A stretch of 64,000 nucleotides of DNA, from NCBI GenBank assembly GCA_965205975.1, contig OZ242195.1:2720001-2784000 (forward strand). Reading direction: 5' to 3'. Both the position numbers and the translations under genes were made by a program. Shown in pieces: positions 21,684 through 21,847 of the stretch. How positions within the stretch are numbered: position 1 is the stretch's first letter; each line of letters begins with the position of its first letter. The DNA comes from Candidatus Latescibacterota bacterium (GTDB lineage Bacteria > Latescibacterota > UBA2968). The notes below the pieces were generated by a model. It did no database searches, was not told the origin of the DNA, and worked only from the letters and a program-made list of their open reading frames with translations.

Positions 21684-21719
21684 AAACAAAAAAGGTCGTG
21701 AGCAGTTTGCCCACGACCT
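21684..21719 (-). terminator. Attenuator intrinsic terminator
   Basis: mRNA AGGUCGUGGGCA-AAC-UGCUCACGACCU followed by UUUUUGUUU; 12-bp stem with one G-U pair. Confidence 0.92.
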
Positions 21720-21745
21720 CGTACTTTTATTCACTTACATCACAC

Positions 21746-21847
21746 TTAAAACGCAGGACAAACCACACTCTTGGACGGGCGGCGATAATAATATCGGCCG
21801 TCAAATCGACGCCAAAAATACCAGAAGTGGGATGTCAAAGCGTTCAT
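21746..21847 (-). CDS. Aromatic amino acid operon leader peptide (33 aa, rich in Phe, Trp and Tyr); not in the ORF track
   Basis: Hand translation MNALTSHFWYFWRRFDGRYYYRRPSKSVVCPAF*; stop lies 26 nt before the terminator hairpin, upstream of trpE. Confidence 0.9.
   Translation of the reverse strand: MNALTSHFWYFWRRFDGRYYYRRPSKSVVCPAF

Follow-up and report, generated by a model that had tools for sequence, protein, structure and literature searches.

Organization of the locus

Here we describe a window of 64,000 nucleotides (the whole stretch of DNA analyzed) from the genome of an uncultured Candidatus Latescibacterota bacterium (GCA_965205975.1, contig OZ242195.1). On its minus strand lies an operon for the biosynthesis of aromatic amino acids that starts with trpE and is preceded by a leader ORF and an intrinsic terminator. 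The features are listed below from upstream to downstream.

22365..22394, minus strand: sigma70-like promoter motif (TTGACA, 18 nt, TATCTT, extended -10 TG), 10 of 12 consensus matches
22105..22350, minus strand: inserted ORF A, 81 aa, DUF4258-like (a lead only; score 0.89 to DUF4258 Atlas clusters)
21884..22114, minus strand: inserted ORF B, 76 aa, overlapping ORF A, stop 36 nt before the leader ATG
21746..21847, minus strand: leader peptide ORF, 33 aa, recognized by its sequence and by the frame kept in relatives
21827..21845, minus strand: segment 1, predicted protector strand (approximately codons 2-7), from minimum-energy folds
21774..21802, minus strand: middle hairpin enclosing the Tyr run, predicted fold of -9.9 kcal/mol
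21752..21766, minus strand: antiterminator strand (segment 2, codons 28-32; core 21763-21756), from folding and covariation
21688..21720, minus strand: intrinsic terminator (5' arm 21720-21708, 3' arm 21704-21692, U tract 21693-21688)
20158..21633, minus strand: trpE, first gene of the operon (TIGR00564 above cut-off; GTG start at 21633, AAGGA at 21645-21641)
9276..20161, minus strand: operon body, from profile matches, with gaps of -14 to 60 nt
16045-14789, minus strand: tyrS, inside the operon
2175..9167, minus strand: distal cluster, from gene family matches

Regarding gene content, the operon comprises trpE, trpG, trpD, a gene for a Gfo/Idh/MocA oxidoreductase, trpC, trpF and tyrS, followed by an HMGL-like gene, trpB, trpA, the genes for chorismate mutase and DAHP synthase, and tyrA. 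The distal cluster consists of a short aroA-like gene, aroE, a ubiE/menG-type methyltransferase gene, an unknown ORF, argS, aroK, a relB/parE-like pair and aroB; it is possibly co-transcribed with the operon across gaps of 108 and 282 nt, and the gene order aroA-ubiE-argS-aroK was found again in relatives. The gene pheA (prephenate dehydratase) lies outside the operon, directly behind another gene and without a leader, and no pheA was found in any trp locus examined among the relatives. The originally predicted joint control of the shikimate, Trp and Tyr genes is to be qualified in that pheA is located elsewhere.

Leader ORF and RNA elements

The leader ORF (21847-21746, minus strand) translates to MNALTSHFWYFWRRFDGRYYYRRPSKSVVCPAF; an alternative in-frame TTG at 21859 would yield a leader of 37 aa. 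Its control codons are F8, W9, Y10, F11, W12, F15, Y19, Y20 and Y21, i.e., three Phe, two Trp and four Tyr codons, or nine aromatic codons within codons 8-21, while the other two reading frames hold one and two. Shuffling of the control region attained nine aromatic codons in 1 of 5000 cases. Among 43,085 short ATG ORFs genome-wide, two contained nine aromatic codons within 14, and only the trpE leader is followed by a terminator. Five Arg codons are also present and form the arms of the middle hairpin. A Pfam search with the leader peptide yielded no match. The conservation of its frame is indirect evidence that the ORF may be translated.

The terminator stem starts at 21720, with 25 nt between it and the end of the leader stop codon (21746), and comprises 12-13 pairs, the greatest stem length among the 25 terminator-like sites between 6000 and 24000 (a number of sites not above the shuffle level of 20.5 +/- 4.3). 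The 5' arm and the loop of the terminator serve at the same time as the antiterminator partner: the core 21763-21756 pairs with 21712-21705, and the full duplex has 14 bp with one bulge and -18.0 kcal/mol, which was matched by none of 300 shuffles. The 191-nt leader region has a folding z of -4.37, and none of 200 shuffles was as stable.

In ribosome-free minimum-energy folds, segment 1 pairs with the antiterminator strand. The probability of this protector pairing in the present genome was 0.79, as compared with 0.37 for shuffled sequences, none of 40 shuffles reaching 0.79. In 17 of 21 genera it was higher than the mean of the shuffles, although the position of the partner is variable and not conserved; an uncontrolled count across relatives gave 31/34, and the comparison with shuffle control 0.82 versus 0.51. 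For the middle hairpin around the Tyr run, energies between -7 and -12 kcal/mol were predicted in 24/24 leaders from two genera; it is a possible RNA polymerase pause hairpin.

The original prediction, made from the letters alone, had described a 33-aa Phe/Trp/Tyr leader with nine aromatic codons, a terminator with a U tract behind it, complementarity between the end of the leader and the terminator, and a hairpin around the Tyr codons. All of its coordinates were verified, and these elements were recovered in their predicted places.

Conservation in relatives

A TrpE search across 168 genomes of the phylum gave a match in 104; the TrpE proteins of Candidatus Latescibacterota relatives are 85-96% identical. 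Leaders were chosen by eye among the best-scoring short ORFs. Every one of the 51 genomes of the order whose upstream DNA is long enough has a leader before trpE. By family, leader and terminator together were found in 29/29 genomes of f1 with enough upstream DNA (leaving out G023, with about 140 nt upstream, and G090), in 22/22 of f2, in 3/3 of f3 and in 12/12 examined of f4 (leaving out seven genomes). Phe, Trp and Tyr codons all occur in the control region of 52/52 counted leaders from families f1-f3, so that the conserved leader expected upstream of trpE is indeed present, and of 8/11 leaders from f4.

Averaged by genus and relative to long ORFs, Trp and Tyr codons are each enriched 5.3-fold, Phe codons 3.1-fold and Arg codons 2.35-fold. 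Regarding the 21 genus representatives, the in-frame aromatic count was 3-12, as opposed to 0-4 in the other frames, and was attained by 0-74 of 5000 base shuffles. Tyr-Tyr occurs in 45/49 f1/f2 leaders and Phe-Phe in 6/49, while at least two Phe codons are present in 49/52 control regions of f1-f3, at positions that shift between genera. Both Phe codons (TTT and TTC), both Tyr codons and all four CGN Arg codons are in use. Length changes of the leader within the genus preserve the frame (three or four Tyr codons; two to three codons lost in G013 and G011). Between genera the sequence of the peptide diverges freely and its composition is kept.

Outside the class, 25 of 29 trpE-bearing genomes were examined, and a clear leader with terminator was found in four (G042 and G073-G075). 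The leader peptide of G076 is identical to that of G075, and G076 was left out of further counts; G048 and G071 were ambiguous as outside-class cases and were dropped. In the remaining outside-class genomes examined, two of which had less than 200 nt upstream of trpE, no leader was seen. Of 61 trpE loci from other phyla with enough upstream DNA, only 2 have a candidate aromatic leader followed by a terminator, one plausible (L178) and one weak (L118), so that the element is not general. The plausible case, from an unclassified bacterium that is not a close relative, is a 32-codon Tyr/Phe/Trp leader with terminator before trpE.

A scan of 585 terminator-like sites in the present genome, strict enough that it could miss some attenuators, was directed at further leaders (His, Leu/Ile/Val, Thr and others) and revealed none that was clear. 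It returned 29 candidate rows; two were inspected, and neither was an attenuator.

Covariation of the paired strands

Covariation was computed on an alignment of 34 sequences, and all counts include shared ancestry and refer to a structure derived from the same sequences. For the antiterminator, 82.9% of the cells were paired, two-sided changes occurred in 31 cells versus 13.4 in shuffles (attained by 0/500) and 2-10 in slid controls, and 6/10 pairs showed two-sided change. Two of five covariation measures of the antiterminator were no better than shuffles (237 and 138 of 500). For the terminator, 94.9% of the cells were paired, 33 cells showed two-sided changes versus 9.9 in shuffles, and 8/11 pairs were compensatory. 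There is also a three-way change, in which GGAC replacing GGGC in the 5' arm of the terminator is matched in both the leader strand and the 3' arm. The stems thus vary together in both alternative structures, as had been predicted for relatives.

Leaders paired with their own terminators had a mean energy of -17.65 kcal/mol, as compared with -14.8 kcal/mol for swapped combinations (21 genus representatives), a difference attained in 3 of 20,000 permutations. The pairings of G048, G105 and G158 were no better than their own shuffles, G105 having been anchored on the wrong site. The core of the antiterminator occupies differing reading frames across genera, which indicates that the constraint acts on the RNA.

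Folding model and proposed mechanism

The switch was modelled by folding the leader around a ribosome footprint of three sizes, with equilibrium folds approximating the order of folding. With half of the 3' arm of the terminator transcribed and the ribosome at codons 8-21, the antiterminator has a modelled probability of 0.82-0.88; with the ribosome between codon 24-26 and the stop, the terminator has one of 0.81-0.87. Any pause within codons 2-24 suffices for readthrough in the model, and since the switch falls at about codon 25, all Phe, Trp and Tyr codons lie in the readthrough zone. This dependence on the position of the ribosome had been part of the original prediction, and the model reproduces it under these settings. 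At equilibrium the complete terminator dominates at every ribosome position (probability of about 0.95), so that the switch must be kinetic, i.e., rest on the order of folding. While the 3' arm is still hidden, the probability of the antiterminator falls to 0.13-0.53 for some ribosome positions within codons 11-20. The antiterminator is also favored (0.73-0.81) in naked RNA that ends at the loop of the terminator, which leaves the state without a ribosome ambiguous. The modelled stall/stop geometry is shared by 19 of the 21 genus representatives; it is absent in G073 and weak in G075.

In the proposed mechanism, RNA polymerase would transcribe the leader with a ribosome following behind. With the tRNAs for Phe, Trp and Tyr all charged, the ribosome would move past codon 25 or so and cover codons 28-32, upon which the terminator would fold and transcription would end near 21688. 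When any of the three charged tRNAs is short, the ribosome would lag within codons 8-21, and the emerging 5' arm and loop of the terminator could pair with codons 28-32, so that trpE would be transcribed. Without a ribosome, the protector helix would probably favor termination. The resulting OR logic would have unequal weights, with Tyr probably the strongest, and would subject tyrS to a feedback resembling that of pheST.

Termination at this site would be expected in vivo. Public RNA is of little help in this respect: 18 RNA runs matched only 5-13% of the words, and the four runs examined consist of contigs of related strains. In three runs contigs ended at 21723, 21718 and 21688, and one crossed the terminator into trpE. 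Contigs of this kind cannot reveal ends or levels, and they do not count as evidence of termination.

Promoter and inserted cassette

The motif at 22365..22394 is the probable promoter of the leader transcript. The distance from the promoter motif to the leader ATG is 22-43 nt in 16 of the 21 genomes in the genus; in the present genome it is 517 nt, because two small ORFs (22350-21884) have been inserted. The original prediction had overlooked this cassette between promoter and leader. The AAGGA ribosome-binding site that precedes the leader in 16/21 congeners has been replaced here, and only a weak TGGA is present. Neither ORF A nor ORF B had a Pfam or NCBIfam match; ORF B has what we take to be a DUF2283-like look, and the two are possibly a toxin-antitoxin-type pair.

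Four of the 21 genomes in the genus have a spacing of 517-554 nt, and in one more the start region has been replaced in a similar way. In all five genomes with a replaced start (G000, G009, G010, G013 and G019) the leader is still open and rich in aromatic codons, and the two stems are retained. Contigs of relatives from three RNA runs join 21847 to 22351/22359 and are thus cassette-free.

The terminator-to-trpE spacer is just 21-40 nt long in 15/21 genomes of the genus, in which trpE consequently needs readthrough. (A second TTGACA promoter-like motif, with 18 nt and a TA-rich hexamer, lies between terminator and trpE in several f1-f3 genera, namely at L049, L050, L054, L051, L052, L063 and others, and is absent from this genus and from f4; where it occurs, trpE could be expressed independently of the attenuator.)

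Leader composition and the aminoacyl-tRNA synthetase gene

When 60 larger loci were compared, tyrS was found in the operon at 19 and trpS in the matching slot after trpC at 12. At least three Tyr codons occur in the leaders of 18/19 tyrS loci versus 0/12 trpS loci, and Trp-Trp occurs in 11/12 trpS loci versus 0/19 tyrS loci. As tyrA is present in both kinds of locus, the Tyr run follows the synthetase gene, tyrS, and not tyrA. All trpS loci belong to one family (f4, versus three for tyrS), so that the exchange amounts to approximately one evolutionary event, counted on the family labels, and is no statistical proof.

Comparison with known systems

Rfam at gathering score gave no match in the window, including Trp_leader (RF00513), and at E values up to 10 there were five chance-level matches and no leader family. 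Enterobacterial thrL and ilvL are multivalent, with several kinds of control codons. An attenuator of aroR-aroF in Corynebacterium glutamicum has reportedly been described by Neshat et al. in 2014, and a Phe/Tyr/Trp leader in Desulfovibrio is said to have been predicted by Vitreschak et al. in 2004.

The locus resembles trpL-trpEDCBA of E. coli in its Trp-codon leader before trpE, its mutually exclusive 2:3 and 3:4 helices and its U-tract terminator (PMC1183508, PMC11802643). It differs from trpL in having 33 codons and nine control codons of three kinds without Trp-Trp, and from trpEDCBA in that its operon also includes tyrS, tyrA and the genes for chorismate mutase and DAHP synthase. With aroR-aroF of C. 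glutamicum it shares a mixed aromatic leader, a DAHP synthase operon and ribosome stalling, whereas aroR contains no Trp codons and is separate from the trp operon, for which C. glutamicum has a trpL of its own; the Phe-Tyr-Phe leader of aroR responds to Phe and not to Tyr (PMC11802643). Like pheL-pheA and pheST of E. coli, it combines an aromatic leader with an aminoacyl-tRNA synthetase under attenuation (PMC11802643, PMC1262725); those systems read Phe alone, whereas here tyrS (in f4, trpS) lies inside the biosynthetic operon. Classical attenuators also precede trpS and leuS (PMC1262725). The proposed OR logic over a branched pathway is comparable to that of thrL and ilvL (operons named in PMC1183508), which serve another amino-acid family; a sequence relation is not expected.

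For Desulfovibrio vulgaris, a putative attenuator is listed before the supraoperon aroA'-aroB'-pheA-aroF-tyrA-trp (PMC1173090, Table 7), i.e., one predicted attenuator ahead of genes for all three aromatic branches, as at the present locus. The two differ in gene order and phylum, and the comparison is with a listing that, in the part of the source available, gives neither leader peptide nor mechanism (PMC1173090). Among the attenuators listed for Shewanella, that of aroF is given as sensing Tyr-tRNA (PMC2659441). The sensitivity of an attenuator is described as dropping with the share of control codons (PMC1183508). A literature search, to which most subscription papers were inaccessible, found no characterized leader for all three aromatic amino acids. 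Very probably, the mechanism is classical, textbook attenuation, and its mixed Phe/Trp/Tyr codon form is what is unusual.

Interpretation and alternatives

An aromatic-rich leader ORF, a terminator, an overlapping antiterminator and, in the footprint model only, the stall geometry are all present. We conclude that ribosome-mediated transcription attenuation very probably controls the operon (probability of about 0.9), and we lean towards the view that the attenuator truly responds to Phe, Trp and Tyr. The broader reading of a three-input OR gate over the trp-tyrS-aro-tyrA supraoperon, with codon weights retuned along with the exchange of tyrS and trpS and possibly with Arg as a fourth input, for argS, is held tentatively, at somewhat below even odds.

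The same attenuator might be controlled by Tyr only, or by Tyr and Trp, with the Phe codons as passengers or fine-tuners. We regard this as rather unlikely, although Tyr forms the only run in the f1/f2 leaders, the richness in Tyr tracks tyrS, pheA and its branch are not in the operon, and aroR provides an example in which not every cognate codon need act (PMC11802643). Against it stand the two or more Phe codons kept in nearly all f1-f3 control regions, which are enriched, use both TTT and TTC and change position, as well as the presence in the operon of DAHP synthase and chorismate mutase, which are required for the synthesis of Phe. A real switch that obeys another signal, be it the general speed of translation, Arg-tRNA, nascent-peptide arrest of the TnaC kind or an RNA-binding protein, is improbable. 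The model, which accepts any pause in codons 2-24, would accommodate such a signal, as would the enrichment of Arg with its five codons here and the recurrence of argS in the cluster of relatives; however, the aromatic synthetase gene predicts the composition of the leader, and the Arg codons build the arms of the middle hairpin and include all four CGN codons.

Sensors of the TnaC type rely on nascent-peptide arrest with the free amino acid and on conserved arrest residues at fixed spacing. An arrest-peptide sensor was rejected as the peptides differ between genera, their composition and not their sequence being conserved, and as the terminal Cys-Pro is antiterminator RNA and changes frame. 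A T-box riboswitch, which has a specifier stem and a T-box motif and can do without a leader ORF, was likewise rejected, as there was no Rfam match and the leader is occupied by a conserved ORF. That the attenuator is degraded in this particular genome, its ribosome-binding site lost to the cassette and its terminator left as a fixed throttle or as the transcript end of the cassette, is very improbable. The distance of 517 nt to the promoter-like motif and the weak TGGA before the ATG would fit such a decay, but leader and stems are retained in 5/5 genomes with a replaced start (weak evidence, the insertion being perhaps recent), and ribosomes could be loaded through translational coupling with ORF B, whose stop codon lies 36 nt before the leader.

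An attenuator at this locus would add Latescibacterota to the groups with leader-peptide attenuation, through an RNA family absent from Rfam, and would offer a compact testable case of a single leader for three amino acids of a branched pathway. The more than 60 natural variants, with their codon mixes and the tyrS/trpS swap, open the weighting of control codons to reporter tests, and use as a pan-aromatic biosensor is conceivable. If the three-input gate is real, it would be the first demonstrated case of a leader that reads the tRNAs of all three aromatic amino acids; if the codons have been retuned, the loci would form a natural series for the change of attenuator specificity.

Further features of the locus

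Short repeat-like insertions occur between terminator and trpE, at 21680-21655 (minus strand) and in L010, L013 and L016, the spacer of congeners measuring 21-162 nt; a similar motif lies between the aroA-like gene and aroE. A perfect 8-bp tandem repeat of 8.8 copies (9208-9277) lies in the gap that separates tyrA from the aroA-like gene. The aroA-like gene (9167-8472, minus strand) aligns with the EPSP synthase model (417 positions) over positions 225-405 only, and a full-length aroA match is found elsewhere (G000:C1:37583-38812). In G021 the operon copy has its full length (449 aa) but is divergent and scores below the aroA cut-off, and in G077 and G078 it is again short; by its sequence, it is a divergent paralog. 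The argS gene (6067-4361, minus strand) is present in the distal cluster throughout the class. A pair of a RelB-like antitoxin and a ParE/RelE-family toxin (3761-3293, minus strand) is inserted between aroK and aroB. Among the trp genes, the Gfo/Idh/MocA oxidoreductase (18546-17482, minus strand) is not at that place in the other genera checked; the HMGL-like aldolase-family gene (14728-13751, minus strand) is also found in G087 and in genus g6.
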